IMG/VR virus record: IMGVR_UViG_3300025324_000023
Location: 1 to 38,319 of that record
Origin: a virus
Lineage: Duplodnaviria; Caudoviricetes
Strand: one strand, 5' to 3'
Length of the DNA stretch: 38,319 bases
Below the pieces are notes generated by a model. That model was not told where the DNA came from and did not search any database. It worked only from the letters and a program-made list of their open reading frames with translations. Positions 3,864-29,189 of this stretch are shown piece by piece. Positions within the stretch are counted from its first letter, which is position 1. Each line of letters starts with the position of its first letter. A program made the position numbers and the translations under genes.

Positions 3864-3864
3864 G

Positions 3865-5988: not shown

Positions 5989-6320
5989 TAAAGAATCCTT
6001 TTCCCGGTCCGGCGTGAAATTATCTTCGAGATCTTATTCCCTGTATCTTTAAATGCATACCTTGATGTGTTGGTGGATGCGGCGATGGGGGATTGAATTG
6101 CTAATTTACCGATATCGGCGTTGGCGCCAATCGAGCGGAAAAATTCACAAACTAGAATATTGAGCGGTGGATAATAACGAATCTCCTCCAATAGTGACAG
6201 AAATTCATTGGCGGTTAAAGAATCAATCTGATCCAGCGTCCATCCATAGGCTGAGCTGAAAATATTATAAGCCTTGGCCCATTCTTTTGTTAATTCTGTC
6301 CGCTCGATTGTTTTGTCCCC
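5988..6320 (-). CDS. Tail assembly chaperone, gpT-like C-terminal frame (probably expressed by -1 frameshift)
   Basis: The frame is open from 6320 and reads GDKTIERTELTKEWAKAYNIFSSAYGWTLDQIDSLTANEFLSLLEE.... There is no ATG/GTG, and the first TTG (6191) lies downstream of the conserved-looking YGWT motif. It overlaps the end of the upstream chaperone in the -1 frame. Confidence 0.65.
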   Translation of the reverse strand, partial: GDKTIERTELTKEWAKAYNIFSSAYGWTLDQIDSLTANEFLSLLEEIRYYPPLNILVCEFFRSIGANADIGKLAIQSPIAASTNTSRYAFKDTGNKISKIISRRTGKRIL

Positions 6321-7459: not shown

Positions 7460-8719
7460 TTAGATGGAATTAATTTTCCTACGGGCCTCGACATATCGAT
7501 CCCCAGTTTTTGGTTTCAAATTCTCAATAACGTCTTGAAATTTGATGTTGGGAATTTCTTCTAAAATTCCGCCTTCCGTTGAATTGATAATGTCAAAGCC
7601 TCGTTTGTTACGTAAATCGTAAAGTGTTTCTCTGTATTGAAGAAAAGGGACATACGTTTCATTATCTCCGACTTTCACTCTTCCTGTTCTCTCGAATAAC
7701 ATTTTTTCGTGATCATCTCGTATCTCGCGAACACTCCCGTCCTTCTCGATCTCGAACCGTTGTGCGTGCATTCGCCCGCCCGTATAGGCATAATCATGGC
7801 CAATCATAACGATAGGGCTGAGTCCGATATAATCGGCGAACAGGACACTCGAATTCCCGACATTCCCGGAATTTATAATCCCATGGAGATCAGGGAAAAG
7901 AGCAGGTAGAATCTTGTCCATAAACTGGACCCCGTAGTGGATCATGTTGTAATAGAAAATGGGCCCTTTCCAATGCTTTGATATTTCAGGATCAGACGAC
8001 GAGTTGAGAATCAATTTCGTGTGAAATCCATAGGGGACTCTCAGCATATCGGAGATAATATTCGGATGGCAATCAACGCTAATCACGAAATCGGGAATTA
8101 TATTTCTCGCCAAAAGCATCTTGAAAGACTTATCCGTCGAGATCACAATACCGGGGAATTCGTGGACGAGATGCACATTCGCATCCAGACTCGGGCCCGC
8201 GCCCACGCAAAGGGCCGGAATATCATGATTTAAAAGACCCTGTAATTCCTGTATTTTCCTTCCGTTTTTTATCTCATCATAATGGGCAACGATGTTTTTG
8301 ATATAGAGTCCAACCCAGTCATTCAGATAATCTTCACTGGCATAGTCGCGCTGGACAATCGGCCTTGTCACCCCATATTCGATATGACATCCAAGAGCCT
8401 CAAGTTTCTTAACCTGAGTCTCGAATTCATTGTGTTTTGTAATGGCGACCTTGAATTTTAGGTCATCCAATTCATGTTTCTGGACGTTCAGCACGTCATA
8501 GACTTTTCCGTCGGAGAAAATACGATCTTCCTTTTTAAATTCATTCGGTGATCCATTGAGGGCGAAAAGAATTGTTCCATTCTCGTTATCAATAATATCG
8601 GCTTCGTCATTGGAAAAAAAAGCGTATATCTCGCGAAATTCGTTCATGATCCGTTTTCTCTGTTTTCGATGAATCTCTATTTTCGTCTTTAGATGTTCGT
8701 CTTTAAGAGATAATGTCAT
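7460..8719 (-). CDS. Maf/DUF115 (MptE-like) family putative nonulosonate glycosyltransferase 3, with an extra N-terminal domain
   Basis: Motifs VGAGPSL, ISTD...L...IIPDFVISVD, SGNV, IVMIGHDYAY, INSTEGG. Confidence 0.8.
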   Translation of the reverse strand: MTLSLKDEHLKTKIEIHRKQRKRIMNEFREIYAFFSNDEADIIDNENGTILFALNGSPNEFKKEDRIFSDGKVYDVLNVQKHELDDLKFKVAITKHNEFETQVKKLEALGCHIEYGVTRPIVQRDYASEDYLNDWVGLYIKNIVAHYDEIKNGRKIQELQGLLNHDIPALCVGAGPSLDANVHLVHEFPGIVISTDKSFKMLLARNIIPDFVISVDCHPNIISDMLRVPYGFHTKLILNSSSDPEISKHWKGPIFYYNMIHYGVQFMDKILPALFPDLHGIINSGNVGNSSVLFADYIGLSPIVMIGHDYAYTGGRMHAQRFEIEKDGSVREIRDDHEKMLFERTGRVKVGDNETYVPFLQYRETLYDLRNKRGFDIINSTEGGILEEIPNIKFQDVIENLKPKTGDRYVEARRKINSI

Positions 8720-9176
8720 CGTCCCTCACCCACGCGCGATAAGATTTTGTTTGAAACCATACTTGCCAATCATCATCGAATGTCGGCGGCCTTTCTGAAT
8801 CCAAAAGGAGTTGATGAAGTTCCGCCTGGCTCGTCGGTTTGGTTACATTATTGAGAAGATAAAGACGTTTTTTTATCCTTCGATGGATATCTTCCAGCGT
8901 ATCAAGAGATCGATGATAGGCCGTAATATCATAGAGATCTTCGCTGATGATCGTCGATTTCGAATGGACAGTCTTATCCGGCGTTCCAGAAACGAAATTG
9001 TAGACAACGATTCCCTTATTCCCGGAGGCTGGAGAAAAATCAAAATTATCTGGGAAAAAAGCATGGTAAACATTATACGGTGTTGTCGTTGTATTTCCCA
9101 ATAGGGCCCTGATTCCGACGGTCGCCTCCGAATCGTCGCGAAGAGCTAAATATATGGCCGAATCTATCTTTTCCAT
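8703..9176 (-). CDS. Tail terminator/completion protein
   Basis: 157 aa, 'AIYLALRDD....IRALLG....VY' N-terminus; lies between the neck and tail tube genes. Confidence 0.65.
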   Translation of the reverse strand: MEKIDSAIYLALRDDSEATVGIRALLGNTTTTPYNVYHAFFPDNFDFSPASGNKGIVVYNFVSGTPDKTVHSKSTIISEDLYDITAYHRSLDTLEDIHRRIKKRLYLLNNVTKPTSQAELHQLLLDSERPPTFDDDWQVWFQTKSYRAWVRDDDIIS

Positions 9177-9177
9177 T

Positions 9178-9645
9178 TTAAAAAATAAGCTTCAGTTCTT
9201 TATTTAATTTCTGAACTATCTCCGGTTTTTTCGCTTCGAGAGCTGGTCGCATAAACGGGAAGGCCCGTCTTCCAGGGCCACCGAATTCAATATCGTTCGC
9301 ATATTCAACACCGGCAACTACCTGAAGAATGATTTCATCATCTTCTATTTTCACCTCCCGTTCCTGAATGTTATCCCTGAGATTGCTTGTCCTGACTTTA
9401 AACCGTAATGTCCCATCTGGATTTTTAAATTTGAATTCACCTTTCTCGGCTTTGGCAGCTGCTCCTTTTCCGGTCCCGACGAAGAAATGACGTTGCTTCG
9501 CATGTTTCGCAATCTCAGCCTCTCCCCAATCCATCACCTTCATAAACATGGTCGCTGTTTTTTTAACGTCATTAGCAAATGATTTTCTCAGTAAATCCAA
9601 TGTTTCTTTATCAAGCTCAAGAGTGAAATCGAGTTCTTTAGCCAT
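9178..9645 (-). CDS. HK97 gp10-like neck/tail completion protein
   Basis: Motifs 'RTSNLRDNI', 'VEYANDIEFG', 'FPFMRPALE'. Confidence 0.8.
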   Translation of the reverse strand: MAKELDFTLELDKETLDLLRKSFANDVKKTATMFMKVMDWGEAEIAKHAKQRHFFVGTGKGAAAKAEKGEFKFKNPDGTLRFKVRTSNLRDNIQEREVKIEDDEIILQVVAGVEYANDIEFGGPGRRAFPFMRPALEAKKPEIVQKLNKELKLIF

Positions 9646-10201
9646 GACCTCTCACTCGCTGAGCGTAAGCTTCCACATGTCCCGCTTCATCCATGACTTG
9701 ATTAACCACATATTCATCATTCCCAGCGATCCAATTCTCCGGCCTAATTCGATCACCTTGTTGTATATCACGCCCACACGCAAAATAGAATCGATGACTC
9801 GATGATTGCATCTGGCCAATTGCTTGTGTTGCCAGAGAACCAGGAGAAATGGGCTGCATTTCCGAATTAAAGCTTCCGACCGATTGCCAATCATCTGTTG
9901 CAATTCCGGTATCACTATAAGTCGGAAAATTTCTGACGACGGAAACAGTTTGTCCCCATAAATCGGTATCAATTAAATCAACCGTATCATTGGCCAAACC
10001 GCTGTATTTGGATTGACAATGACTTGAAATTGCAAGAACATTTGGAATACTTAAGGTCAAGGTCAATGGTGAAACGACTGCCGTATGTTGAACGTAACTT
10101 GCCGTTACTGTCGCAATTGTAAATAGTGCAACAACCGGAGAAACAGCAGCGGTAAATACTCCAGGTGCTTTAAGAATAGGTCTTTTTAAAAAAGAAAACA
10201 T
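9638..10201 (-). CDS. Head closure / head-tail adaptor-like protein with N-terminal extension
   Basis: The C-terminal half 'GQTVSVVR...SHRFYF...DIQQGDRI...YVVNQV...HVE' resembles head-closure proteins. Confidence 0.6.
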   Translation of the reverse strand: MFSFLKRPILKAPGVFTAAVSPVVALFTIATVTASYVQHTAVVSPLTLTLSIPNVLAISSHCQSKYSGLANDTVDLIDTDLWGQTVSVVRNFPTYSDTGIATDDWQSVGSFNSEMQPISPGSLATQAIGQMQSSSHRFYFACGRDIQQGDRIRPENWIAGNDEYVVNQVMDEAGHVEAYAQRVRGHG

Positions 10202-10202
10202 T

Positions 10203-10964
10203 TTAAATCACCCCTGGATAACCTTTCGGTGCCAGTAAATATAAATATTGCATTTCTTCCGCACTTAAAGCTCGATACATAATGCGAACATCATCAATTT
10301 GCCCTGTATAATCAAGAGTAGTTATCGTCCCGTATCTTCCTATTTGAGGACCAAGATTTCCATAAATATCACCATAACCGGCACCGATATTTTCCGTACC
10401 GGTTAAGGCTCCATCAACATATATTTTTATGTTCGTTCCATCTCGAACCCCTGCAATAAATCGCCAGGTATTATCGTTTAAATTAGTTATACTGGAATTG
10501 ACCGTTATATCAGCCGTATTATCATCAACAATAAATTGAGGTCTCCCGGAAACACTAAGATTCATTTCTAGCGCAAACCATTGTCCTTCGGTTGTTTCAT
10601 AATTAGCAATGATAGCTTGCCTGGTAGTATCGGATGTTTTTATCCAACAACAGACCGAAAAATCATTATTGTCTATACGAATATAATTTGGAATTGAGAC
10701 ATAATCATCAGAAGCATCTAGAAAACTTAATGATCCCCAACTGCCAGATCTGTCTCTTCCTTTCCAATCAGCAGCGGTTAAATTAAATATATCTCCATGA
10801 TTCCTATTGGTTAAATCACGGAATATGTTTCCACCTCTACTATTGGGCGTCACCATCCACCAACCAGCCAAACTTCTATTCAATGGATGATTCATATTAA
10901 CGGGTCGAGCCCAATTAATTAATCTTGGATCACGTAATTTAGGCATTATAAACATCCAAAACAA
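10203..10964 (-). CDS. LamG / concanavalin A-like lectin domain virion protein
   Basis: 'FSVCCWIK', 'NDNTWRFIAGVRDG..IKIYVDG', 'GQIDDVRIMYRALSAEE'. Confidence 0.85.
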   Translation of the reverse strand: MFWMFIMPKLRDPRLINWARPVNMNHPLNRSLAGWWMVTPNSRGGNIFRDLTNRNHGDIFNLTAADWKGRDRSGSWGSLSFLDASDDYVSIPNYIRIDNNDFSVCCWIKTSDTTRQAIIANYETTEGQWFALEMNLSVSGRPQFIVDDNTADITVNSSITNLNDNTWRFIAGVRDGTNIKIYVDGALTGTENIGAGYGDIYGNLGPQIGRYGTITTLDYTGQIDDVRIMYRALSAEEMQYLYLLAPKGYPGVI

Positions 10965-10976
10965 TCTCGAATTGGA

Positions 10977-11531
10977 TCACTGAATTTCGTCTGTCACGGG
11001 AGTTAGTCTGACACTCATTTCAACCGCATCGGCTATGAATGCTTGGCTTGCATCATTTTGAACGACAATCATTCCATATTGTTGCTCTGGTATGAAAACA
11101 CCAAGATGGCCGATATGAATATCGGCGTCATTCGAAACCGGAATTGATCCGATAAAAATTAGTTGATTAATGGCTTCATCAGCATCACCAGCCGCCACAC
11201 CATAACCATAATAATCACCATCTGCTCCAGCTAGATTCCCAGGATTGCCAGTACCGGCTGTTGCAGAATGTGAAAATCCGATCCAGACCTTAACCGTTCC
11301 GCCGGCAGTCGGAGCCACGGAATATTCAAATGCGCCCGTAACAGCCCACATGGCAGCCCGTGTCGCCCCTAGGTTAAATTTCGTGCTTTGTTTATAACCG
11401 CCCGCAATGGTTGAAGTCAAATCAATCTGATCCGTTCTTGTTCCTAGATTATTACCAGCCGCCGGCGCATGATCGGTAGTATCAGCTAAAATGATCGATG
11501 TTCCTGTTTTTATTAAACTTTCATTTGCCAT
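10977..11531 (-). CDS. Hypothetical virion structural protein
   Basis: 184 aa, Gly/Ala/Thr-rich, GGAGG SD, in the neck cluster. Confidence 0.55.
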   Translation of the reverse strand: MANESLIKTGTSIILADTTDHAPAAGNNLGTRTDQIDLTSTIAGGYKQSTKFNLGATRAAMWAVTGAFEYSVAPTAGGTVKVWIGFSHSATAGTGNPGNLAGADGDYYGYGVAAGDADEAINQLIFIGSIPVSNDADIHIGHLGVFIPEQQYGMIVVQNDASQAFIADAVEMSVRLTPVTDEIQ

Positions 11532-11556
11532 TTAAACCTCCATGGAATTGTTTGTG

Positions 11557-11862
11557 TCATCCATAAATTCCGCCTGCAATTAAAGCTGTAACCGCACTAT
11601 CTACATTAGTCTGAATAACCGCATCGGAAGATGACTCTATTTGCGATTTTGTTGCAGATGAATTTGCAGCAAGAATATAATTGAATATTTTATCTGCTTC
11701 AGGAATCGGATTAATGAATGCTTTGTTCGAAAATGAAACCTGAGCGGTGGTCGGGGTTGCCCCATCCAGAAGTGATTGAGCTTTTTTTATAACAGCAACC
11801 GCTATTTTATTTCGAATAGATGAGTTTGAACTGATATCATAAATTTCAGAATAAGTCGCCAT
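11557..11862 (-). CDS. Hypothetical protein (probably structural)
   Basis: ORF track gives 11557..11898; the GGAGGAG SD favours the ATG at 11862 (MATYSE...). Confidence 0.6.
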   Translation of the reverse strand: MATYSEIYDISSNSSIRNKIAVAVIKKAQSLLDGATPTTAQVSFSNKAFINPIPEADKIFNYILAANSSATKSQIESSSDAVIQTNVDSAVTALIAGGIYG

Positions 11863-11901
11863 GATGAAATCTCCTCCGTTTTGTAAATTAGTTTCCAAAT
11901 C

Positions 11902-12339
11902 CTAGCTTAATTGTAAAATTCCTTCGCTATTCCAGGGGATATCAATTTGCGTCGCTGTTGATGGAATATCTGCCGTGAAATCGACAAAACAAATGGGAAT
12001 AGAATCCGTATCATCCGTTACATGTTTATATACAAGCACTCCCTGAATATCGCGTGATGCATTCCCACCCAGACCTGTAAAGGAAACATCATTCGCGTCG
12101 AATTCAGCTCGATCATTGGTATCATCCGTATTGACTGCTTCTCCGGTTAAAGCGACTCTCGCATAACCGGAAGAATTACATTCATCCAAAGTCGTGATGG
12201 CAGACACAGTATCAACATCAGTATCCGTATCTGCTGTTGTATTCGTCATGAGAAGTGCACAGCGGATATCATGCGAATTCAAATCAATCGTTCCATCCAT
12301 TAAACCGGATTTTGCTATGTTAAATACTAAACTTGCCAT
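11902..12339 (-). CDS. Hypothetical virion structural protein
   Basis: 145 aa, acidic and Thr-rich; AAGGAG SD; the pattern 'GYARVAL', 'FDANDVSF', 'IPWNSEGILQL' is common in phage minor structural proteins. Confidence 0.6.
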   Translation of the reverse strand: MASLVFNIAKSGLMDGTIDLNSHDIRCALLMTNTTADTDTDVDTVSAITTLDECNSSGYARVALTGEAVNTDDTNDRAEFDANDVSFTGLGGNASRDIQGVLVYKHVTDDTDSIPICFVDFTADIPSTATQIDIPWNSEGILQLS

Positions 12340-12407
12340 ATAAAAATCTCCTTGGAAACAGTCATTTCTTTTCCGTTGTAAAAGACATACGTGGAAACAT
12401 ATTTAAT

Positions 12408-12701
12408 TCACTGATCTCCAATTAATTCTGTTTCGTTAAATCCGGTTCCGTCTTTTACGGAATAGCCATGATCCCTAATTGTTATTGACGGTATTTTGTT
12501 CAATAATTTCTGATACATTTCACGCATTTCAATCAATTGCTTAAGGCGACCCGTTCCATCGACAGTTTTTGAACCAATCGTATAACTCAAGTTGGCTACA
12601 TTTCCGGCTCCCGATGTAGCTAGTTCACTAATAACAGTAGCAATCGCCGTATCAATATCATTTATTTTTGTGATGATCTGATCTTGGGTCAGTTCCGCCA
12701 T
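12408..12701 (-). CDS. Head-tail joining protein (lambda gpW-like)
   Basis: 97 aa; helix, then 'SYTIGSKTVD' hairpin, then 'LKQLIEMREMY' helix. Confidence 0.6.
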   Translation of the reverse strand: MAELTQDQIITKINDIDTAIATVISELATSGAGNVANLSYTIGSKTVDGTGRLKQLIEMREMYQKLLNKIPSITIRDHGYSVKDGTGFNETELIGDQ

Positions 12702-12705
12702 TCTG

Positions 12706-13530
12706 TTATCCTTCTACCGTTTCCTTTTTCAACGCTTCATCAATTTTTTCCCAGGCGATTTTCATTCCCTTAAAATTGTCTTTCTCTGACTGCCACACCT
12801 CGGGCACGAAACCGATTGGCATTGGTTCAAAATATCGGAGGATACTTCTCCAATCTAAATCGCCCGTATCCATTTGAAGTCCTTCCCCGTCAACTCCCTT
12901 TGCATCCGATATGTGCATATGTGCCGTTACTGGACGAACCATCTGGGCGAATTTCATGATTGATATTTCATTCTCAATTGAATTTACGAATAAGCTCGCA
13001 TGGCAAATATCAAAACAAAAACCGTATCCTAATCCTGATGCAAAATCGATGCAGTCGCGCGGGTTCATAAAGATGTTTCCATACCAATTCCCCCCATAAA
13101 AAACGCAGTTTGGAGGAAGATTCTCAAGCAACAGATCCACTCCCAGCGAGTTGATCTCGCTCAACGATCTTCCAAGTTGCTCATACATCTCCCGTTTCTG
13201 CAAAGCGTTCGTTGGCTCGATACTAATACCCCCAGGATGGAGCACGGATTTTGGCGTTCCGCGAAACCGCTTGCTCCAATTGCGGGTCACGTTCATTGCA
13301 TTGTTATAGAACTTCACCGCCTGAATTCGTTTCTTCTCATCCAGGGAAGACACATCTATAAGTTCAGATTGATCATATTCTGGAAGATGTACAACTAGAG
13401 GAAGATTGTAGTCTTTGTTAAATTCTTTCTTGAGATCTTCCGAGCTTGCGTGAATCTCAATCAGTTCAGGTTTAAATATGTCAATAACCTGGTCGATATC
13501 GTGTGGCCTTGCTTTGCATCCTCGTTTCAT
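12706..13530 (-). CDS. Xylose isomerase-like (AP endonuclease 2) TIM-barrel protein, NeuB-associated
   Basis: Motifs EIH, VVHLP, LENLPP, CFDICH, HMHISDA..DGEGLQ, FVPEVWQ. Resembles the C-terminal domain of long NeuB fusion proteins; overlaps the neuB stop (TAATG). Confidence 0.8.
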   Translation of the reverse strand: MKRGCKARPHDIDQVIDIFKPELIEIHASSEDLKKEFNKDYNLPLVVHLPEYDQSELIDVSSLDEKKRIQAVKFYNNAMNVTRNWSKRFRGTPKSVLHPGGISIEPTNALQKREMYEQLGRSLSEINSLGVDLLLENLPPNCVFYGGNWYGNIFMNPRDCIDFASGLGYGFCFDICHASLFVNSIENEISIMKFAQMVRPVTAHMHISDAKGVDGEGLQMDTGDLDWRSILRYFEPMPIGFVPEVWQSEKDNFKGMKIAWEKIDEALKKETVEG

Positions 13531-14585
13531 TAGTTTTCTCCCTTTTTCCCATAAGTCAATTCAGTTTCAAAAACAGGTTCACCGGCCCTGACGGGCTTGG
13601 TCGTCACCAAGTGCATATCCACAAACTTGGGGCCTTTGTAGACCGGAACACCATAGCCTGGGCTCGAAGCCATGAACGAATGTGCGCCTACTGGCGAATC
13701 CGCCCCAAGATCCTGAGCCCAGGTTAAAATCTTCCCCAATGTCTCCCTGGCCATATACTCGCCACGATTAACAACCTTCTTATCACCCAATGCCTCTTCA
13801 ACGGCCCTAATGTGCCTTACAAGCGTCTCTAGGCCGTGTGGTTCAAGGCTAGCAGCATGATCTGGCCCGGGAAGGGTTCTATCAAGGGTAAAGTGGCGCT
13901 CAATCATCACTGCCCCCAGTGCTACCGCCGCTACCGTGATAGGAATACCCCTCTCATGGCCAGAAAAGCCAATAGGTAAATTGTATTTTTGACGCATCTT
14001 TACCATATAATTTAGATTTATATCTTTATTGGATGTAGGATAGCTAGAAACACAATGCATCAACGCCAATCGATCAGGGAAAAGTGTTTTGTAATAAGGA
14101 ATCAATTCGTCAAGCTCATCCTCGTAATGCATTCCTGTTGAAATTATCACAGGCTTACCAGTTTTCGCCAAATACTCCATGTGAAAAATATCGGAGAATA
14201 GAGCACTCGGCACTTTATAGGCCTCGACCCCGAGTGATTCCAGGAATTCTATCGAAGGGATATCCCACGGTGAGCAAAAATAAGGAATGCCTATTTCATC
14301 ACAATGCTTTTTCAGCCGGATGTGTTCGACCTCGGTCAACTCGCATTTCTCAAGGATAGGAATATAAACCCCAAGAGAATGAGCCGAATCAGAAGGATTT
14401 TCAAGAACGGGTTTTCTGTAAAGATGTTTGAGCGACCGTTTTTGGAACTTTACGATGGTAGCTCCTTTTTCTTTTGCAATATCAATCATTTCAATAGCAC
14501 GTTGATAAGAACCATTGTGATTCAGACCGATCTCACAAATAATAATCGCATTGTCTTTACCGACCGTTTTTCCAAAAATATTCAT
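13530..14585 (-). CDS. neuB: N-acetylneuraminate/nonulosonate synthase (NeuB family)
   Basis: EIGLNHNG, VKFQKR, KPVIISTGM, LMHCVSSYP, IGFSGHERG, IERHFTLDRTLPGPDHAASLEP; C-terminal SAF-like segment. Confidence 0.95.
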   Translation of the reverse strand: MNIFGKTVGKDNAIIICEIGLNHNGSYQRAIEMIDIAKEKGATIVKFQKRSLKHLYRKPVLENPSDSAHSLGVYIPILEKCELTEVEHIRLKKHCDEIGIPYFCSPWDIPSIEFLESLGVEAYKVPSALFSDIFHMEYLAKTGKPVIISTGMHYEDELDELIPYYKTLFPDRLALMHCVSSYPTSNKDINLNYMVKMRQKYNLPIGFSGHERGIPITVAAVALGAVMIERHFTLDRTLPGPDHAASLEPHGLETLVRHIRAVEEALGDKKVVNRGEYMARETLGKILTWAQDLGADSPVGAHSFMASSPGYGVPVYKGPKFVDMHLVTTKPVRAGEPVFETELTYGKKGEN

Positions 14586-14590
14586 TTTAA

Positions 14591-15628
14591 TTACCCATTA
14601 CCAAAAACATGAAGCCCAAATTTATAAAAATAAATATTCGTCTTATTCGAATTTGGATTCATGTAATTAACAACAATGATATTTCCATCATCTAATTGGC
14701 AAGCACCTGTATATCCTTGATCACCTGATACATTTTCGCAGTGATCAAGTGGAGCAAATAACATATTTTGATAACAAAGAGGTGAAAACAATGAATGCGG
14801 TGATATTAATGCCATCATTGTGTTTTGATTGGCTCCACCACCAAAATAGGGACGAAAGGAAGAAAAATAACGACCATCTATCAATCGAAATAAATTTGGA
14901 CGATGACATCCGGCTGGAAGAATAAAATAATCTGGTTTTGTCCATGATCCAGAATCTAGATAACTCCGTTTTCCCTGTCTCCTCCAATTATCTGATCTCA
15001 TAATAACAACAGGAACGCCTAATGATGAAAAAATTATTTCCCCTTCCGTCAATGAACAAGATTCATCTTCTATCGTATTATTATTCTCTGTTAATTCATC
15101 AGATTTAATATCAACAACAAATTTATTCTTAGATAAATCAAATTTCGATATAGAAATATATCGAGTATTTTTATCATTAAATGAAATAGATGGGCATATG
15201 CCTCTTTCATCAATGTGTTCATTTTTTAAAATTTCAATCCCACTATTTTTGGGAACCAACGAAAGAAGTCTAATCCGGCATGAATTATTATCATACATAC
15301 TATTGAAATCAGGAAATGATTTGACAAGAGGCAACTCATCCACAATAACGACGAAAAGATTGTCTAATTTAGAAATTGCCATTCTTGGACTATTCCATGA
15401 ATATCCATTTTCAGAAGATAATCTCAAAACCTCTTTCCAATGTTCTCCTTCATCTATCGAAAGACAAAAAATAAGTTCATTTTGTCCACGCCTTGTATGA
15501 TTAATTGCCGTAATGAAACAACATAATATATGCTTCCCAATACGATCCACATCTGGGAAAAAAAGCCCGTATTGGTTATCTGTCGCAAGCAATCTTCTTT
15601 CAATAGCAATCATTTGATACCTCGACAT
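14591..15628 (-). CDS. Sialidase/BNR-repeat beta-propeller protein
   Basis: N-terminal FPDV (FRIP-like), Asp-box SIDEGEHW, degenerate YLDSGSW, HRP, and GDQGY near the C-terminus. Confidence 0.7.
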   Translation of the reverse strand: MSRYQMIAIERRLLATDNQYGLFFPDVDRIGKHILCCFITAINHTRRGQNELIFCLSIDEGEHWKEVLRLSSENGYSWNSPRMAISKLDNLFVVIVDELPLVKSFPDFNSMYDNNSCRIRLLSLVPKNSGIEILKNEHIDERGICPSISFNDKNTRYISISKFDLSKNKFVVDIKSDELTENNNTIEDESCSLTEGEIIFSSLGVPVVIMRSDNWRRQGKRSYLDSGSWTKPDYFILPAGCHRPNLFRLIDGRYFSSFRPYFGGGANQNTMMALISPHSLFSPLCYQNMLFAPLDHCENVSGDQGYTGACQLDDGNIIVVNYMNPNSNKTNIYFYKFGLHVFGNG

Positions 15629-16251
15629 ACAGCCAATAGAAAATCATGTGGTATATTCCATTTCTTCTGATCATCGAATTTAATATCCTTGAAATAAGTC
15701 GATAGAAAATCCTGAAACTCTGATTTTGTAAATTCATGTTCATGATACTCAGTCCAAATGACATTTGTCCCCTTTTTGATAGGCGTTGTGATCAACAAAA
15801 GAGCATCTTCTTTTCTAAAGAAAGCGTTTTTCATCCCAGCCATAAATGCGTGCTGATTTTCTTCTGATAGATGTTCAATAACTTCAATACAAACAATGGT
15901 ATGGAATCTGGATGGATTCGCCATATAATCTTGAAGTGTAGAGACGCCATATTTGATTCGTTTTTCATTAAGTGATTCAGCTTTGTAGATTGCATATTCG
16001 ATTGCTTCCGCTGATTGATCAATAGCCATTACTTTAAGACAATTGTTCAGTAAAATATAATCTCCATAGCCAGAACCACATCCAGCATCTAGTATATCCA
16101 TTTCACTCGTCAGATAATTAGCCGCCCACTTATAACGGTTGATATGGCGACGATACAAAGCCATTCCATGCTTCATCATGTGATCAACATAGAATCTCTC
16201 TTTCGTGAATGCGGGCCTTGGTCTTCCTCTCATCGTTTCCGTCTCAATCAT
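15610..16251 (-). CDS. Class I SAM-dependent methyltransferase
   Basis: 'HINRYKWA', ILDAGCGSGYG, 'CIEVIEHL', 'ITTP', 'HEHEF'. Confidence 0.9.
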   Translation of the reverse strand: MIETETMRGRPRPAFTKERFYVDHMMKHGMALYRRHINRYKWAANYLTSEMDILDAGCGSGYGDYILLNNCLKVMAIDQSAEAIEYAIYKAESLNEKRIKYGVSTLQDYMANPSRFHTIVCIEVIEHLSEENQHAFMAGMKNAFFRKEDALLLITTPIKKGTNVIWTEYHEHEFTKSEFQDFLSTYFKDIKFDDQKKWNIPHDFLLAVCRGIK

Positions 16252-18002
16252 TTCATCTCCAATATTTTTTCTATCTGTCCATTCGCTATATGATGTCTTG
16301 TCTCCATGAATTGATCTTCCGTTAACTCTCCGTAATTCAAGATTCGCCCCTGCTGATCTTTCATAATTTTATCTGCATCGTCCAACTCTAGAACATAATA
16401 TTTCAGATTGTCGTCGATGATCGGGCTCCCGAATTGATCGTAATTGATTCCGAAATTATCATGAAGTTTTTGCCGAACGGTTGGATGCTTGAACATTTCC
16501 GTTCCCGGATAACTAGTTGCTATGAACATATTTTTATTCACCGAATCAGGGGCATCGCCAAACTGGGAATAAAATTCCTGTTGCCATAAAATAAAGGCGA
16601 CAGTCGTCTTAAGCTGTTCCAGCGTCTCTCCTGGATAGGCCTCTATAAACGTGCAATTAGAATGGATTCCAGCATATTTTGTGTTCTTTATTCCCTCGAC
16701 CATCGTTCGCGGAAATTCGAATCCCCGCCAGTTGACGAATCCGTTGACCAATATGAATCCACCTTTTCCCATGTTTTCGAGAGTTGTTTTATGTGCGCTT
16801 TCAGCTCCGAATCCGATATAGATACATCCCGACTTTGCCATAGAATTGACCCGCAGTGGATTATTGATGACATAACCTGGGCCATGTTTATTCGGACCGA
16901 GATCTGCGGCTTCATCCAAACGCGCATGAGTTCCCCATCTAATGTTTGAGTTTTGTATGAGAGGAATGAAATAGGGTTCCATGTCGAAGATACGTTGTCT
17001 TTTGACGGCGAAATTATCATCTGTTACTCCAATAAAGTCGACATTATATTGATCAATGTAATGAACAAATTCAGTGGCTAAATTTTCAGCTGATCGAATC
17101 GAATAATTTCGCTCACCTGTTGATCCACGGAAACAAAAATGACATGCATGTGGACAACCTCGGCTGGAAACTGTATTGATCGACCGCTTCATTGTGAATG
17201 GCGTCGCGCTTGAGTTATTGGCTTTGAGTCCCCATATCTCATTTTTGATATAGGTTTCTAGAACCGGAAATCCATTCACATCTTTTTCTAGAAGATCATA
17301 GGCTGGAAACGGAAGATCATCTAGATTCTTAGGACGCCCGCCGTCATAGAGAAATCGATACTTTGATCCAGCTAGACCGAGACAATAGGGATCGAGACTC
17401 CCTGAGAGATAAGCCCCATGTTGACCGAGACGTTTGATTTGAACAGCATCGTATGTCATCTTGATAATCGAGAGATCGCCCTCCGAGTGGGCCACGCCAT
17501 CGAGTTCCGGTATCCACTGGAAAAGACCTTCTTTGAATTCAGTTGCCAGACCATTCCCCGTTACCAGGAAAACATCCGGCATGAGATTCCTGACAATTTT
17601 GGCAATAACCATTTGCCATCTAAGAGTTGTAATCATGCCTGACATGGCCACCATATCCGGCATCCCATGGGCACGGATGTGTCCTCGAATGAGATCCGCC
17701 GCCTCAACCTCATTTATCGTTCGCCCGTTTTTAAGTCCACGCAGATCTGCATTCATATCTTTGAATCGATAAGCATTTAAATCGATCATTGTTGGGATGG
17801 CTTCCCATTGTCGCAACATGGAAGCTAGCAAGGCAGGTCCGAGAGGTAAACAGTTTGGGACTGCTGTTTCCCGAAGGGGCATATTGATAAAAAGAATTTT
17901 GGCGTTCTTTATACAGTTACGATCTAGTTTATCGACGATATTGCCAGGATAGACATAAGATTTTACATTAGTAAGAACAGAAGGCATAGGAATCCTTCGC
18001 AT
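16248..18002 (-). CDS. Cobalamin-binding radical SAM protein (class B methyltransferase-like)
   Basis: N-terminal B12-binding 'PLGPALLASML', 'LDDLPFPAYDL', SRGCPHACHFC (CxxxCxxC), 'DDNF', 'GAES', 'PGET', 'YPGT'. Confidence 0.9.
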   Translation of the reverse strand: MRRIPMPSVLTNVKSYVYPGNIVDKLDRNCIKNAKILFINMPLRETAVPNCLPLGPALLASMLRQWEAIPTMIDLNAYRFKDMNADLRGLKNGRTINEVEAADLIRGHIRAHGMPDMVAMSGMITTLRWQMVIAKIVRNLMPDVFLVTGNGLATEFKEGLFQWIPELDGVAHSEGDLSIIKMTYDAVQIKRLGQHGAYLSGSLDPYCLGLAGSKYRFLYDGGRPKNLDDLPFPAYDLLEKDVNGFPVLETYIKNEIWGLKANNSSATPFTMKRSINTVSSRGCPHACHFCFRGSTGERNYSIRSAENLATEFVHYIDQYNVDFIGVTDDNFAVKRQRIFDMEPYFIPLIQNSNIRWGTHARLDEAADLGPNKHGPGYVINNPLRVNSMAKSGCIYIGFGAESAHKTTLENMGKGGFILVNGFVNWRGFEFPRTMVEGIKNTKYAGIHSNCTFIEAYPGETLEQLKTTVAFILWQQEFYSQFGDAPDSVNKNMFIATSYPGTEMFKHPTVRQKLHDNFGINYDQFGSPIIDDNLKYYVLELDDADKIMKDQQGRILNYGELTEDQFMETRHHIANGQIEKILEMK

Positions 18003-18747
18003 TCATTGTATGATTCGAATAAATTAATTTGGCCGGTATTTTTTTTGAAAGATAATGCTCTGCAATTAAAATATCTTCCAGCGTATCTATCTCTAGACTG
18101 CTTATTTGGTCCATGACATATGGGATAGTTGATTTTGTAAAAAGCTGAGAATTTATTTCTTTCTTTAAAATAACATCTTTTGGGATGATATATATAGCAC
18201 CATTCGCTCTATAATCAATAGGTTGATTTTGACTTTGATAAAAAAGTTCGCCATATGGATGTTTGCATTTCAAGAATCCATTCGATTGTATTTCCATTAG
18301 CCCATAAGGTCTATAAAGAACAGGGCAAACGCTCATCAATGTTTTCATTGAACTATTATTTTTGCGCCCATTGCTTGTTTTCCAGATAGTAATAGCTTGT
18401 TTAATGTGATCAGCTTTTCGAAGAGGACTTGTCGGATAAAGAACACAGATATCTTTTTCATCAAATCTCAATAATCTTGCGGCATCAAAAATGACATCTG
18501 ACATCTTCGATTTATCTGAACATAGATCATCCTTTCGTTTATCCCAATTAAATCCATACTTTTTCGCAATACTTATAATCGTTTCATCATCCGTCGAAAC
18601 GTAAACAGATCCAGTATAAGATTCATCTTTAATCACATCGGAAACAACATCAAGGGTATATTCTATTAGAGATTTCCCTAATATTTTAAATGTATTTTTA
18701 TTGGGAATTCGTTTTGAATCTTTTCTGGCCGGAATGAAATAAATCAT
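17968..18747 (-). CDS. neuA: CMP-nonulosonate synthetase (acylneuraminate cytidylyltransferase)
   Basis: IPARKDSKRIPNKN, VSTDD, LYPTSPLR, NGAIYI, SLEIDTLED. Confidence 0.92.
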   Translation of the reverse strand: MIYFIPARKDSKRIPNKNTFKILGKSLIEYTLDVVSDVIKDESYTGSVYVSTDDETIISIAKKYGFNWDKRKDDLCSDKSKMSDVIFDAARLLRFDEKDICVLYPTSPLRKADHIKQAITIWKTSNGRKNNSSMKTLMSVCPVLYRPYGLMEIQSNGFLKCKHPYGELFYQSQNQPIDYRANGAIYIIPKDVILKKEINSQLFTKSTIPYVMDQISSLEIDTLEDILIAEHYLSKKIPAKLIYSNHTMNAKDSYAFCSY

Positions 18748-19052
18748 GGGGTTACAAATCCAATACAGTTAAGCGTTTGGTTTCCAGCACTGATATCGAT
18801 CACCATCGATTCGTTGTCATTTGTATAGAGAGGATCTGTATCAGGCCAATTTAAATCAATATTTTCATCGGCTGTAAGACCAAGTTGAAAAACAGTTGTG
18901 CTTCCACTCTTTACGGTAAGAGTAGCAGCTCCATCTGTTTCTCCTGAGAGATGGGTAAGACAATTCCTTTTCCCGGCTCCTGGTGCAGCAATGGTTATAG
19001 TCGATGTTCCAGTTTGCCTGATTTTTGATGACTTTTGTATTAATTGGTACAT
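18744..19052 (-). CDS. Hypothetical protein (small, beta-rich, possibly structural)
   Basis: 102 aa, AGGAG SD, ATGA overlap with neuA. Confidence 0.55.
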   Translation of the reverse strand: MYQLIQKSSKIRQTGTSTITIAAPGAGKRNCLTHLSGETDGAATLTVKSGSTTVFQLGLTADENIDLNWPDTDPLYTNDNESMVIDISAGNQTLNCIGFVTP

Positions 19053-19080
19053 GGAAATCTCCTGTCAACAAAACAAAATC

Positions 19081-19347
19081 TCAATTAAAAAATAATTTTA
19101 ACGTCCGTGATGCTAAAGGTCGCATTTGAACAACCACCGGTTTATCGTGATAATAAATCTGAAAAATATTCCCACCTCCACATAATAAATCTCCGTTTGT
19201 ATTTTTTTTATTCATATCGACACGAGCTTTACTTTCAATATCATGAATTGGGAACTCCGACATCGACCGACCAGCCTTTAAATCATTCCGTATTTGATCC
19301 GAACACCATCGTTGGGCAGCCAATTGATCAGGATGTTTTGTCTGCAT
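19081..19347 (-). CDS. Hypothetical protein
   Basis: 88 aa ORF continuing the operon. Confidence 0.5.
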   Translation of the reverse strand: MQTKHPDQLAAQRWCSDQIRNDLKAGRSMSEFPIHDIESKARVDMNKKNTNGDLLCGGGNIFQIYYHDKPVVVQMRPLASRTLKLFFN

Positions 19348-20020
19348 TTTTCCTTGGTCTTCCTCTTTTTCTTTTCACGATAATAGTTTCACTCCCGTCA
19401 ATAGATTTATGCCCATTCCCATTTGATTTTACGGTTTTTAATTCATTGATCAATCTCTTGTTATCTTCGAGCAGATTAATTTTTCGATTTAATAATTCTG
19501 ATTCTCCAGCATAATTTGTTGAATCATCCCAAAGGTGACCACCTAATTCAGAATTCATTCCTTCAAGCATCTTGATTTCTGATCGGAGTTCCAATGATCT
19601 CTCAAGCGGTGATGGAATATTAATCGACCCAGTTGAAAATGATGTGCGTGGAGTTTCTTTCTGAAACCGTGGAGATAATTCTATATTTTGTTCAACTGCA
19701 GGATTAAGATCTCCCGTCGCTAATGTATTTGAAACTCTTATACCGTAAGGATTGAAATGACTGACCTTCCATTTTTCAGGCGCAGTAGATCTTCGAATAG
19801 GCTCATTACGATCTTTTGGATTTGATTTTGCAATAACAGGGCCTTGCGGCTGCTGTCGTCCTTCCCATTTATTCAATTGATTCACATGTTTTTGGCTTAA
19901 TATTTCACCAGCATTAACTAATACTTTACCACCATATCCAATGACATCTTTTTGGACCTTCATCCCCGCTTTAAGTTCTGTAACGGGGAGATCTTTAACT
20001 TTTCCAATTTCGGCTACCAT
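19328..20020 (-). CDS. Hypothetical protein with C-terminal AT-hook-like motif
   Basis: GGGAGG SD; N-terminal 'LKAGMKVQKDV...GKVLVNAGEILS' domain; C-terminal KRKRGRPRK. Confidence 0.65.
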   Translation of the reverse strand: MVAEIGKVKDLPVTELKAGMKVQKDVIGYGGKVLVNAGEILSQKHVNQLNKWEGRQQPQGPVIAKSNPKDRNEPIRRSTAPEKWKVSHFNPYGIRVSNTLATGDLNPAVEQNIELSPRFQKETPRTSFSTGSINIPSPLERSLELRSEIKMLEGMNSELGGHLWDDSTNYAGESELLNRKINLLEDNKRLINELKTVKSNGNGHKSIDGSETIIVKRKRGRPRKNADKTS

Positions 20021-20053
20021 TTATAATTCCTCCCTAGGAAGCTATGCTTCCAC

Positions 20054-20116
20054 GATTTTATCCGCATGGCTAAAAATCAAGAGGGAGTTCCAGATCTCAG
20101 CCACGCGGGAAAAATC
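20054..20116 (-). promoter_or_regulatory. Long-stem, large-loop hairpin after the major capsid gene
   Basis: Minus strand GATTTTTCCCGCGTGGCT-27 nt-AGCCATGCGGATAAAATC: 18-nt arms with one G.U and two mismatches; no U tract. Confidence 0.5.
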
Positions 20117-20125
20117 ATAATTAAT

Positions 20126-21100
20126 TTAAGATACTTTCATCCATCCGCGCCAATTGAGGACGGTTGTCGCCCAACGAGATCGCGATTTCCATCTTCGAAC
20201 ATCCCGCTCGAATCGGCTTCCTGCTTCCGCCGGTTCCTCGAATAACCCAAGTTTCTGCCTCCATTGGAAAACAATTCCAATAAAGTCTGTTTTTATATAC
20301 CAGTCTGTCGTCGATGTTTGATCAAGACGTGGAGAAGAAATAACTTCCAATCCTTCTTCAGCTAATACATTCTTACCCTGTCCAACAGAAGCTGCAGGAC
20401 CTAATGTGCCGGCGGCATAAGCCCATGGAGCAAATGCACTTTTAGTTATGAGATTTGCAGTATATTTCAGATTTGTCGGAACAACCAAATGTGTAGCAAC
20501 AACATCTAAAAGATCCTCTGTTGTATGGCCTGTCCATCCGCCAATTATACCCAGAGCGACCGCTAGAGCATTAGCCGATAATGTTACATTTGTATAAATA
20601 TTGTCGTTCACACCGATAGCCGATCCGCCGGTATAACCAGGATGATTCAAACTGAAAAAAGCATTCGCATCATAGATCGTTGGATTCCCATTTATGATCG
20701 AATAAACAGTTTTATCCTCTTTTTTAGCATGGGCATTCCCAAGATCCATCGGCAATCTTTTTATCTGATTAGTTTTATCATCTTCAATCAATTCTTCTGT
20801 AATTGCAATGATCTCACCGTATTTGTGATTTGTAATCTCAACAAAATCCTCCGGCGGAATAGTCCTTTCGACAAACGGTGCGCCTTCCAGAATCTTTTCT
20901 GGAAGAGCTACATTACCGAGGGATGGATATCCCTCCTTCGCTTTATCAGATTCCTCGAATGTGACGATAGACGAATAAGTCGTCTTGGCTGTTCTATATG
21001 CCTTGAACATAAGATCTTTTAATCCAACATTCAAAAACTGATAGAACTCTGACCGAGACGAAGCTTCCCGTATAGATTTTAAATCCCATATTTCATTCAT
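20126..21100 (-). CDS. Major capsid protein (Mu gpT-like, HK97 fold)
   Basis: 'NHKYGEIIAITEELIEDD', 'YDANAFFSLNH', 'HLVVPTNL', 'ISSPRL....DWY', 'NWRG'. The AAGGAGG SD favours the ATG at 21100 rather than the track start 21154. Confidence 0.88.
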   Translation of the reverse strand: MNEIWDLKSIREASSRSEFYQFLNVGLKDLMFKAYRTAKTTYSSIVTFEESDKAKEGYPSLGNVALPEKILEGAPFVERTIPPEDFVEITNHKYGEIIAITEELIEDDKTNQIKRLPMDLGNAHAKKEDKTVYSIINGNPTIYDANAFFSLNHPGYTGGSAIGVNDNIYTNVTLSANALAVALGIIGGWTGHTTEDLLDVVATHLVVPTNLKYTANLITKSAFAPWAYAAGTLGPAASVGQGKNVLAEEGLEVISSPRLDQTSTTDWYIKTDFIGIVFQWRQKLGLFEEPAEAGSRFERDVRRWKSRSRWATTVLNWRGWMKVS

Positions 21101-21102
21101 TT

Positions 21103-22011
21103 TCATTTCCTCCTTGAGCCGGCTAATACCGGATTGATATTTAAAATCGTGCAACTCGTTCTATTGTCAATTCTGTGTTTCATATAACGAGTTGATTCTT
21201 CATGCCATCTAGCGAATTGTTGCAACGAAAGATTTGTAAAAACCTTTTCTCCATTTGTATTAATATCCTCGAAAATTGTTCCGGCTGTCCCTTCTTTTTC
21301 CATCCTTTCTTTTTCGAGTTCCTTAAATTCTCCACCTGCATAAAAATCACCATCCGGCTTCCAGCAAAAGTCGTGTCCGTACAAAAGAAGTTTATTGTAA
21401 TTTCTGACTGAGAGTCCGAATCCAAGCGCAATTGAGCTGACATTTCCGCCAGGAGCAAGTTTCGCTCCCACCTTTGTTTCCAGCGCATGCATATCATCAA
21501 TAAATTTCTGATGATCGATATCATAAACATTGTTCATCATGACAAACCAATAAATTTCTCCTTCCCATGCTTCTATTACTTTTGGGTGAGTAATGACATT
21601 AGCCACCAATTTTATATGAGATGTGTCAATCAATGAACCGTCTTTCCCTTCAAGCATAAAAAGAATCTTATCTGAGAAATCTGTTGTTACGCAAAAATCA
21701 GGTGTCAAGCCTTTTTGAATAAGAAATTTAAGGGAAGCGTCTACACAAATCAATTCACGATGTTTCCTCATCTTCACCAAATCATTAAAATCATTTTCCA
21801 ATGATGGTCCAGCGGCGACAGATATTCCCTCGCCATAATCTTTTGTCTTCCATAGATCTGCTATTGTCTTATTAATTCTGCCTGAGTTTTCTTTGGCATT
21901 TTTAATCCATTCGCCCTTATGTTTCTTTAAAGTCCGAATTGTTCGAGCTTTATGAATGACATCGAATTGTTCATTAATCGGTTTATTTTCAGTTTCCAAA
22001 AGCTGGATCAT
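21103..22011 (-). CDS. Maf/DUF115 family putative nonulosonate glycosyltransferase 2
   Basis: VAAGPSLE, ICVDASL..L...GLTPDFCVTTD, PGGNVSS, LLLYGHDFCW. Confidence 0.8.
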   Translation of the reverse strand: MIQLLETENKPINEQFDVIHKARTIRTLKKHKGEWIKNAKENSGRINKTIADLWKTKDYGEGISVAAGPSLENDFNDLVKMRKHRELICVDASLKFLIQKGLTPDFCVTTDFSDKILFMLEGKDGSLIDTSHIKLVANVITHPKVIEAWEGEIYWFVMMNNVYDIDHQKFIDDMHALETKVGAKLAPGGNVSSIALGFGLSVRNYNKLLLYGHDFCWKPDGDFYAGGEFKELEKERMEKEGTAGTIFEDINTNGEKVFTNLSLQQFARWHEESTRYMKHRIDNRTSCTILNINPVLAGSRRK

Positions 22012-22021
22012 ATTTTCTGTT

Positions 22022-23098
22022 TCATAATTCTAATTTGTCTTTTCCGTTTGGAGAATATTGTTTCGTCAAATCGGTTCCTGATACATATTCAATATCTTTT
22101 GTTTTTGTTAAATTTAAGTTTTCGCTAGGCTGATTAATCCATTCTTTTGGCGTGTATTTTTTAATTGCGTCTTTCAAATCCATTATTTCAACATACTCGA
22201 AATGTTCACCTTGTTGTCCTACACCAAGGATTCCACCTTCTGTCGCATTCACGACAGATCCTTTCATTTGTTTAGCCATAGCCTCATGCCAACGTTTAAA
22301 TGCAAGCAGAGACAAGTTTGTCTTAACTTCTTTTTTGTAAATATCGTAATGCGTCCCGCCAGGTGTGAGCGTGCGTGCACGCGTATTTTCGATATGTTCA
22401 TGCCCCGCATAATGATGTGAATCATATTCCCATGATAGATCAAGACCGACAAACACAATCTGCTGTGATTTTAAAAATTGCATTGCGAAATGATGGGCCG
22501 CCGTTGATACATTCCCACCCGTTAAAATCAAAGAATTGATCCCATCAAATTCAACTTTATAATTATCATCGGCAATAACTTCTTCTCCTTCTTTGATATC
22601 ACGGGTTGCTTTAACAATCCTAGTCAAATGAAAATGATTGAATCCTTTCTCGGCTCTTGCATGCGGTGTGTGAACAAAAAATAGAGGACCTTTCCATGTG
22701 GAAATAACATCTGGCGCCGCCGATGGAGTCGCGACCAAAGTCGTTCGACTTGTATCAATACCATCAATCATAGCGATCATTTTTTCTGAACCATCTATTG
22801 AAATACAATATTCTGGATAGATTTCATTATGAATCAAATATCGTAAAGCCGCATCAACACAGACAATAACACCCCTGGCAGATATTGTTTTAAGAAGATG
22901 GATATTTTTCTCAAGGCTTGGACCTGCAGCTACTACGTATGTAGTCAATCCAGTCAAATCAGGATTACCTTTTGAAAAGTATTTTCTATTCTTTAATGTA
23001 TTCTCACGCCAAAGATTATTTTTGCCTCCTCTAGTAGATTGATTAGTTAAATCTCCTATATAGTCCATTGCCATTGATTGTTCAATTGTCAATTCCAT
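22022..23098 (-). CDS. Maf/DUF115 family putative nonulosonate glycosyltransferase 1
   Basis: VAAGPSLEKN, VCVDAAL..L....IYPEYCISID, TGGNVSTAA, IVFVGLDLSW, VNATEGG. Confidence 0.82.
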   Translation of the reverse strand: MELTIEQSMAMDYIGDLTNQSTRGGKNNLWRENTLKNRKYFSKGNPDLTGLTTYVVAAGPSLEKNIHLLKTISARGVIVCVDAALRYLIHNEIYPEYCISIDGSEKMIAMIDGIDTSRTTLVATPSAAPDVISTWKGPLFFVHTPHARAEKGFNHFHLTRIVKATRDIKEGEEVIADDNYKVEFDGINSLILTGGNVSTAAHHFAMQFLKSQQIVFVGLDLSWEYDSHHYAGHEHIENTRARTLTPGGTHYDIYKKEVKTNLSLLAFKRWHEAMAKQMKGSVVNATEGGILGVGQQGEHFEYVEIMDLKDAIKKYTPKEWINQPSENLNLTKTKDIEYVSGTDLTKQYSPNGKDKLEL

Positions 23099-29102: not shown

Positions 29103-29189
29103 CTACTCATGATTTCCTTCGATATCTTCATTCTGGCATTTATCTTCTATATCGAATTCTTCTCCACAGATTGGGCATCGCGGCTTCAT
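29103..29189 (-). CDS. 28-aa CxxC..C..H miniprotein, copy 1
   Basis: MKPRCPICGEEFDIEDKCQNEDIEGNHE*; ATGA overlap with the MuF stop. Confidence 0.55.
   Translation of the reverse strand: MKPRCPICGEEFDIEDKCQNEDIEGNHE

Follow-up and report, generated by a model that had tools for sequence, protein, structure and literature searches.

Bacterial Maf proteins, nonulosonate O-glycosyltransferases of flagellin, among them those of Magnetospirillum (PDB 5MU5), CbMaf, GkMaf, and Shewanella Maf-1 and Maf-2/GlfM, bind flagellin via a C-terminal TPR domain or via GlfM (10.1101/2023.12.03.569772). Glycosylated particles are known from actinobacteriophages, in which phage transferases reportedly act on capsid and tail tube (Freeman et al. 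2023) and glycans of mycobacteriophages sit at the capsid and tail-tube C-termini (PMC12619734, citing Freeman 2023), and from giant DNA viruses, which encode nucleotide-sugar synthesis and transferases for the particle (PMC4691112). Here, we analyzed IMG/VR record IMGVR_UViG_3300025324_000023, one linear viral contig of 38,319 nt from a siphophage-like virus (the whole stretch is called the window), in which three Maf genes and a set of genes for the synthesis of a predicted CMP-ulosonate lie among the head and tail genes. We conclude, with a probability of about 0.7, that these Mafs glycosylate the virion with an ulosonate made by the phage, in a late O-glycosylation of tail-tube and head proteins. 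Virion glycosylation by these Mafs from any donor is more probable still.

The phage proteins share with bacterial Mafs the Pfam family PF01973, the fold, the catalytic acids and the linkage to NeuA/NeuB. They differ in being encoded in a virion operon, where the three paralogs have constant places next to head and tail genes and one of them is fused to a head-closure fold. They stand alone at 302–419 aa, with no flagellin or TPR match in the window (Pfam, PHROG) and no GlfM, at which no search was aimed; they have Asn or Cys in place of a conserved Ser, and no amino-sugar pathway was found in the phage. As in actinobacteriophages, phage transferases would act on capsid and tail tube, here using a CMP-ulosonate that the phage is predicted to synthesize; the actinobacteriophage transferases reportedly belong to an enzyme family other than Maf. 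Giant DNA viruses differ in their eukaryotic hosts, and their glycosylation uses NDP-sugar pathways, not CMP-ulosonate and Maf. A bacterial locus in Ensifer encodes a CBS-NeuB-SAF-TIM fusion beside ManC and GT2/GT4 polysaccharide transferases, whereas the phage counterparts are split and lie beside Mafs. The archaeal pterin pyrophosphokinase MptE (8SD5), an enzyme of about 220–240 aa, shares the Pfam family and the N-terminal nucleotide-binding segment with the phage Mafs, but its fold match is shorter, and the phage proteins lack its FTDGDR segment and any folate context. As proposed, the system works like flagellin glycosylation by Maf redirected to the virion, with an outcome like that in actinophages, but fits the definition of neither.

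The statement in the initial annotation that no phage system of this kind had been described held within the literature searched and 50,697 GenBank phage records. No published description of a phage Maf/nonulosonate virion system was found, most subscription papers and supplements lying outside the search, and the words 'phage' and 'virus' do not occur in the accessible part of a NeuB survey (PMC8208679). Among the GenBank records, Maf1, Maf3, the tube protein and two other viral Mafs had no match, and NeuB had three, at 29–35%.

Three Maf genes in a virion operon

Nearly every gene of the window, and every gene of the system, is on the minus strand, to which the coordinates below refer unless stated otherwise. 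The gene order begins with terminase, portal, MuF, protease, a 326-aa protein (23187–24167), Maf1 (22022–23098), Maf2 (21103–22011), the major capsid protein (20126–21100; Mu gpT-like, PF25209/PF10124, PHROG major head) and three small genes. It continues with neuA (17968–18747), genes for a B12-binding radical SAM enzyme (16248–18002), a class I SAM methyltransferase (15610–16251) and a BNR/Asp-box beta-propeller (14591–15628), neuB (13530–14585), a TIM-barrel gene (12706–13530) and five further genes. Downstream of this block follow the head-closure-like gene (9638–10201; weak PHROG match), Neck1 (9178–9645), the tail terminator (8703–9176; weak PHROG match), Maf3 (7460–8719), the major tail (tube) protein (6682–7446; phrog_807, E 2e-11), chaperone and tape measure. 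Pfam, PHROG and structural models bore out the genes named in the initial annotation at their positions, all on the minus strand, including the three Maf/DUF115 genes interleaved with structural genes: all three matched PF01973 (Maf_flag10/DUF115/MptE-like) at 75–103 bits (Maf1, 102; Maf2, 75; Maf3, 94) against a cut-off of 34.6.

The Maf2 stop codon is 2 nt from the capsid gene, and that of Maf3 is 13 nt from the tube gene. The six genes from neuA to the TIM barrel are stop/start-coupled, with intergenic gaps of -35, -4, -19, +5 and -1 nt. This block (12706–18747) had been described as lying, tightly coupled, between the capsid and joining genes; the coupling stood, with three small genes intervening between capsid gene and neuA and five between the TIM-barrel and head-closure genes. 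AGGAGG ribosome sites are strong at the capsid, 326-aa protein and tube genes and mostly weaker at the enzyme genes, as would be expected if the enzymes were minor products of one late transcript. A scan of the window for promoters and terminators gave counts at chance level (52 vs 55.9 and 13 vs 14.9).

Fold calls were made with Foldseek on predicted models of Maf1 and Maf3, both built from shallow alignments. Maf1 is a GT-A-like transferase by type, and the best match of its model (pLDDT 88) was 5MU5 (E 4.8e-9, TMq 0.51, 292 columns), as was that of the Maf3 model (pLDDT 84; E 2e-9, TMq 0.42). Residues E324 and D415 of 5MU5 are required for the activity of bacterial Mafs (10.1101/2020.06.03.131540), and Maf3 D216 and D309 align to them. 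These columns are invariant in 18 of 18 tail Mafs; Maf1 D102 and D220 are invariant in 57/57 homologs, and Maf2 has an acidic residue at both catalytic columns in 17/17. By modelled fold and catalytic acids, the phage proteins thus appear to work like Mafs, yet as a distinct variant.

We then compared the window with its clade, 14 distinct records from viral and metagenome searches with a capsid identity of 39–100% to the window; 10 of them are long enough to span capsid to neck, and 8 reach the tube gene. Maf1 and Maf2 lie between the 326-aa protein gene and the capsid gene in 14/14 records, Maf3 precedes the tube gene in 8/8, and neuA, radical SAM, methyltransferase, neuB and TIM-barrel genes are each present in 10/10 (the radical SAM gene as two subfamilies). 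The more similar the capsid of a relative is to that of the window, the more similar are its sugar genes and Maf1/2 (Spearman 0.77–0.90, n=9); for Maf3 the coefficient is 0.64 (n=7, not significant). Between the window and its closest relative, L048, dN/dS is 0.04 for Maf1 and capsid and 0.03–0.13 for methyltransferase, radical SAM, NeuB and TIM barrel, with dS saturated for Maf2 and NeuA. In a 78-row tree, which like the other Maf tree below is a quick tree, each Maf paralog forms one side of a branch (98–99), and the same three subgroups recur within Maf1 and within Maf2. The paralog tree, the conservation of the module and the low dN/dS indicate that the three Maf copies are old and retained, and no recent island.

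Beyond this clade, 23 of 28 other viral Maf loci, related genomes included, have a capsid, terminase or tube gene no more than 2 kb away, and linkage to NeuA/NeuB recurs in several unrelated phage lineages.

Maf3 and the tail tube

Searching viral contigs with a tail-tube profile, which included one sequence of a sister lineage (L024), returned 20 loci, and a Maf directly adjoins the tube gene in all of them, upstream in 5 (clade members) and downstream in 15 (sister lineage). Fourteen of the loci were new and had been retrieved without regard to Maf; 11 remained distinct after removal of duplicates and of the L024 copy. Apparent tube–Maf gene fusions in L088, L091 and L092 came from open reading frame calling and are separate adjacent genes. 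In the tree, the 18 tail-type Mafs group together (SH-aLRT 93), with L037 among them, and the head-type Mafs fall on a separate branch (81). Maf and tube distances correlate (r 0.84), as shared ancestry alone would also give.

The N-terminal ~100 residues of Maf3 (8423–8719) are all-beta and form a beta-barrel in the model. Foldseek matched this domain to head-closure (stopper)/connector chains of SPP1, GTA, SaPI1 and others at TMt 0.55–0.63 and E ~1e-3 (7z4w_1, TMt 0.60; 2kz4, 0.63; 6tba_3A; 9mu3_C; 3f3b). Using hhalign, it aligned to the head-closure family of the clade itself (P 79.6, E 1.5e-5, 36 columns), and one of six members matched phrog_25 (E 0.007). A separate head-closure gene is present in the window besides this domain. 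The stopper domain occurs in 6 of 18 aligned tail Mafs, which marks it as an add-on.

Residues 84–172 of the tube protein form an insert with 29% Ser plus Thr in the window; over 18 homologs, the mean is 26% in the insert and 13% in the core, and many insert positions are conserved. Prediction of a tube–Maf3 complex gave a score of 0.43, with 0.20 for the best control, and the runs agreed in at least 96% of contacts, with a partner pLDDT of at least 83. This is a weak pass. Of 157 solved pairs, 116 attained the mark, and of 215 mismatched pairs, 2 did; scores up to 0.60 comprised only 18 of the solved pairs but both mismatches. We regard the tube protein as the leading candidate acceptor.

Head-side Mafs and their candidate acceptors

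The 326-aa protein, encoded directly upstream of Maf1 in the clade, is likely a capsid decoration/cement protein and a candidate acceptor of Maf1 and Maf2. Its leads to cement proteins are weak (Atlas, 0.85; PF09956 in 12% of its cluster; PF22758 at E 0.008 in 2 of 17 homologs), and no PDB match was found. The gene is a tandem duplicate in L002/L048, L003, L059 and L061. The capsid protein is a further candidate acceptor for the head-type Mafs; its C-terminal residue is Ser in 50/51 homologs, although this Ser may be structural.

Maf1 and Maf2 join capsid-adjacent Mafs of unrelated phages in the tree. The acceptor-binding parts of bacterial Mafs have no counterpart by length or fold in the phage proteins, which end soon after the catalytic domain. 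Residues ~160–185 of Maf1 (22540–22620) form an inserted beta segment, without a Pfam match at E 0.001, which to our eye resembles a SAF/beta-clip half-repeat.

A predicted pathway to a methylated ulosonate

NeuA (PF02348, CTP_transf_3) matches CMP-Neu5Ac synthetases (PDB 6ifd/1eyr, E 4e-20) and reaches 102 bits with the NCBIfam PseF model, under the cut-off of 206. NeuB (PF03102, E 2e-78) likewise stays under its cut-offs (273 vs 400 for NeuB_NnaB; 203 vs 340 for PseI). Its E18, H210, E229 and H231 align to E25, H215, E234 and H236 of the N. meningitidis enzyme, which we take to be catalytic and metal-binding residues. In L048, NeuB (L048:16478-17887) has an in-frame insert of ~118 aa and is otherwise 91% identical in the best segment.

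The phage NeuB is 39% identical to the Ensifer CBS-NeuB-SAF-TIM fusion (plasmid NZ_CP083371, L083), and the xylose-isomerase-like TIM barrel (PF01261, AP_endonuc_2) shares 34% identity, at 96% coverage, with the C-terminal domain of this fusion, whose neighbours are NeuA, ManC, methyltransferases and GT2/GT4. Judged by these alignments, NeuB and TIM barrel are a split form of the bacterial fusion. A Gmd/LegB-like 4,6-dehydratase gene precedes the protease gene in 5 of the 10 long relatives; in the window this place is taken by an HNH gene (25695–26366, plus strand), suggesting that the HNH gene displaced the dehydratase.

The radical SAM enzyme (Pfam B12-binding and Radical_SAM) has CxxxCxxC at residue 283; its NCBIfam class-B matches are all under cut-off, and its cellular relatives, at 23–25% identity only, were uninformative. 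We predict a tailoring enzyme of the C-methyltransferase type, and for the class I SAM methyltransferase (Pfam Methyltransf_25) O- or N-methylation of the sugar.

Queries with NeuC and aminotransferases found no match at any locus of the clade, and a Pfam scan of 81 of the 117 unassigned open reading frames of G001–G004 (36 overlapping or opposite-strand ones omitted) found neither; G001 and G003 have terminal repeats, yet are 50–57% complete according to CheckV. With neither gene found, NeuB scoring under its cut-offs and NeuB and TIM barrel matching a split fusion, Neu5Ac, Pse and Leg are improbable products. All three were rejected for want of supporting genes, and the sialylation of the initial annotation finds no support if the word is taken strictly. 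From the gene content, we infer a non-amino, mannose-derived acid (Kdn- or deoxy-Kdn-like), probably methylated by both SAM enzymes. A Sinorhizobium reportedly makes an O-methyl-Kdn polymer.

Alternative explanations

The best-surviving alternative, itself unlikely, is that synthesis and transfer are uncoupled: the Mafs would draw on the host for their donor (CMP-Kdo or a CMP-nonulosonate), and the methylated ulosonate of the phage would serve only some Mafs or go elsewhere. Bacterial Mafs accept both CMP-Kdo and CMP-Neu5Ac (10.1101/2020.06.03.131540). In the sister lineage (L088–L101, L024; G006–G010; 41–49 kb), the tail module carries a Maf without neuA/neuB, and several loci have the order tube, Maf, an unassigned 336–371-aa protein, GT2, methyltransferase, chaperone, tape measure; NeuB/NeuA were found in 0 of 5 sister phages with a tail Maf, and in 0 of 4 at a completeness of at least 90%. 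The donor can thus come from the host, and a tail Maf need not use a phage-made sugar. One further phage (L011) retains this head module alongside another pathway, a Pse-like one, which makes the sugar exchangeable but not the position of the Mafs. Against uncoupled use, the synthesis genes and Mafs of the clade always co-occur and diverge in step with the capsid, and no other glycosyltransferase able to use a CMP-sugar was found in G001 or G003.

In unrelated or distant phages, Mafs were also seen with other sugar kits: Pse-like (L011, L039), NeuC-NeuB-NeuA (L035/L036), radical SAM plus sulfatase (L030), and glycosyltransferases plus an asparagine synthase-like protein (L021).

Less probable again is conversion of the host surface, in which re-glycosylated flagellin, pili, S-layer or LPS would block rival phages and the BNR protein would strip the native sugar. 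All characterised Mafs act on flagellin (10.1101/2020.06.03.131540, 10.1101/2023.12.03.569772), sugar clusters of jumbo cyanophages have been interpreted as host-surface modifiers (PMC7824862), and the window does hold a gene with a sialidase fold. The Maf and sugar genes, however, lie among late lytic-phase capsid and tube genes and form no separately promoted moron; the Mafs have no flagellin-binding module, and their adjacency to the tube gene is invariant, on either side of it.

The BNR gene itself fits an accessory role better. Its protein is a BNR_2 propeller by Atlas features (0.96) and by model (TM 0.89), with Asp boxes in the alignment; no match was found in Pfam, PHROG, NCBIfam or PDB sequences. 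FPD replaces (F)RIP, presumably the sialidase arginine motif, and EG, the conserved Arg positions and GY are present in 3/3 proteins. The gene (GC 0.33, GC3 0.22) occurs in 3 of 10 long relatives and is missing even from L048, whose capsid is 91% identical. The protein thus appears, from its model, to be an accessory with a sialidase-like fold. A core step in the pathway was ruled out by the 3/10 distribution, and the sialidase placed in the core block by the initial annotation did not keep that place.

Slightly more doubtful is the possibility that the Maf-like proteins are enzymes that handle nucleotides in the manner of MptE/TPK, or else virion parts without catalytic function, with Maf3 sitting in the neck through its stopper fold. 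Maf1 sequence profiles score 5MU5 and MptE 8SD5 equally (E 6e-8 each), and the regulator SteA, which has the same fold, is among the structure matches. CbMaf needs Ser S334 (10.1101/2020.06.03.131540); at this position, 23 residues before the second acid, Maf1 (57/57) and Maf2 (17/17) have Asn and Maf3 of this clade Asn or Cys, with Thr in 11/11 sister tail Mafs and Ser in 23 of 24 long Mafs. A NATEGG motif is common to Maf1 and Maf3, and Maf2 lacks it. Structure nevertheless favours Maf over MptE on the question raised by the initial annotation: MptE ranks below 5MU5 for both models (for Maf1, E 4e-4 and TMq 0.28), matches span ~290–300 columns for Maf and ~180–270 for MptE with better E and TMq for Maf, and the phage Mafs have GNV where MptE has FTDGDR. 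MptE identity was ruled out on fold and motif, though the sequence profiles tie. The recurrent linkage to NeuA/NeuB in unrelated phage lineages and the separate head-closure gene also speak for transferases.

Modification of phage DNA or synthesis of a small molecule, such as an anti-defence metabolite, is very improbable: in phages, glycosyltransferases and methyltransferases often serve to hypermodify DNA (10.1101/2023.12.21.572611, PMC13326640), but no base-modifying primer enzymes are nearby, Mafs are protein O-transferases, and the genes lie in a morphogenesis operon, away from replication genes in G001, G003 and G004.

Besides the sister phages without NeuA/NeuB, the cyanophage precedent, the tied profiles, the SteA fold and the replaced Ser, four points on the tail side weigh against virion glycosylation with a phage-made sugar. 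Kin share gene order, so that the adjacency counts are non-independent events. Of the 18 tail Mafs aligned, 12 lack the stopper domain. The Ser/Thr excess of the tube insert has no Maf-less control, as no Maf-less tube gene was found, and beta-rich virion proteins are often rich in Ser and Thr. Finally, a stopper fold on a ring of tube fold resembles solved necks, which could explain the tube–Maf3 score.

Other features of the window

The window is a fragment (CheckV completeness 40%). Its gene order recurs in independent genomes, and contigs from three other runs cover 28–30 of 30 window bins; the layout is thus no assembly artefact. The runs that contain window DNA are labelled soil and groundwater metagenomes, and no RNA dataset is listed among them. 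The only two matches to metagenome-assembled genomes identify no host: one is a 1.6-kb contig binned as Nitrospirae, the other a 65.6-kb contig which, though binned with Sphingomonadales, is this phage.

The MuF/head morphogenesis gene (29186–31270) contains an intein (Pfam Intein_splicing, residues 388–679); MuF in several relatives is ~370–390 aa long without intein, and in G003 the intein is present, spread over two open reading frames. Besides the HNH endonuclease gene at 25695–26366 (plus strand), the head region contains a second one at 27967–28422 (minus strand). A conserved gene after the capsid (19328–20020) has an N-terminus resembling the NosR/HD-GYP N-terminal segment, and its C-terminal KRGRPRK is, we presume, AT-hook-like. 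The head-closure gene has a variable N-terminal extension (~66 aa in the window, ~145 aa in G002, L079:6124-6924, none in L048). Between tail assembly chaperone and tape measure there is a 300-nt gap (5988–6290), where relatives carry a second small open reading frame; it is possibly a frameshift extension of the chaperone. G003 encodes two WD40-repeat proteins (L077:1949-2887, 3534-4490).

Proposed mechanism and implications

Of the idea in the initial annotation that the logic of flagellin glycosylation is reused to coat the phage's own particle, the Maf fold, the catalytic acids, the tube adjacency, the stopper domain and the weakly passing complex prediction speak for the core; a core sialidase, and Neu5Ac, Pse or Leg as the sugar, were not supported. 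In the mechanism we propose, the TIM barrel, together with the GDP-sugar 4,6-dehydratase in half of the relatives, would supply a non-amino hexose, which NeuB, going by its family, would condense with phosphoenolpyruvate to a Kdn-like or 9-deoxy-Kdn-like acid. The SAM and B12 radical SAM enzymes would O- and C-methylate this acid, and NeuA, again going by its family, would convert it to the CMP donor. As fold, catalytic residues and gene linkage suggest, the Mafs would then, in the cytoplasm and as particles assemble, transfer the sugar to Ser/Thr without flagellin-binding parts; Maf3 would modify the tail tube, and Maf1 and Maf2 the capsid or decoration protein. Maf3 may be helped by its head-closure-fold domain, docking on tail or neck rings. 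The likely benefit would be an anionic coat.

At slightly less than even odds, we entertain a more far-reaching version, in which head and tail tube each have a Maf subfamily of their own, evolved by swapping the flagellin-binding domain for targeting parts of virion origin, a captured head-closure domain among them, and the phage covers its whole particle with a C- and O-methylated sialic-acid-like sugar of its own making that is undescribed in any organism.

If the proposal is true, many uncultured phages build a sialic-acid-like particle coat with their own enzymes, and virion glycosylation extends beyond actinophages, with different chemistry. The sugar itself may be a methylated ulosonate not seen before, with a B12 radical SAM enzyme taking part in its synthesis. 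The phage Mafs would be small Ser/Thr ulosonyl-transferases (300–420 aa) that stand alone and for which a candidate acceptor can be named, making acceptor recognition by Maf proteins testable without culturing the phage. Such a coat would affect the contact of phages with host surfaces, hydrolases and minerals, and viruses would be added to the makers of environmental nonulosonates.

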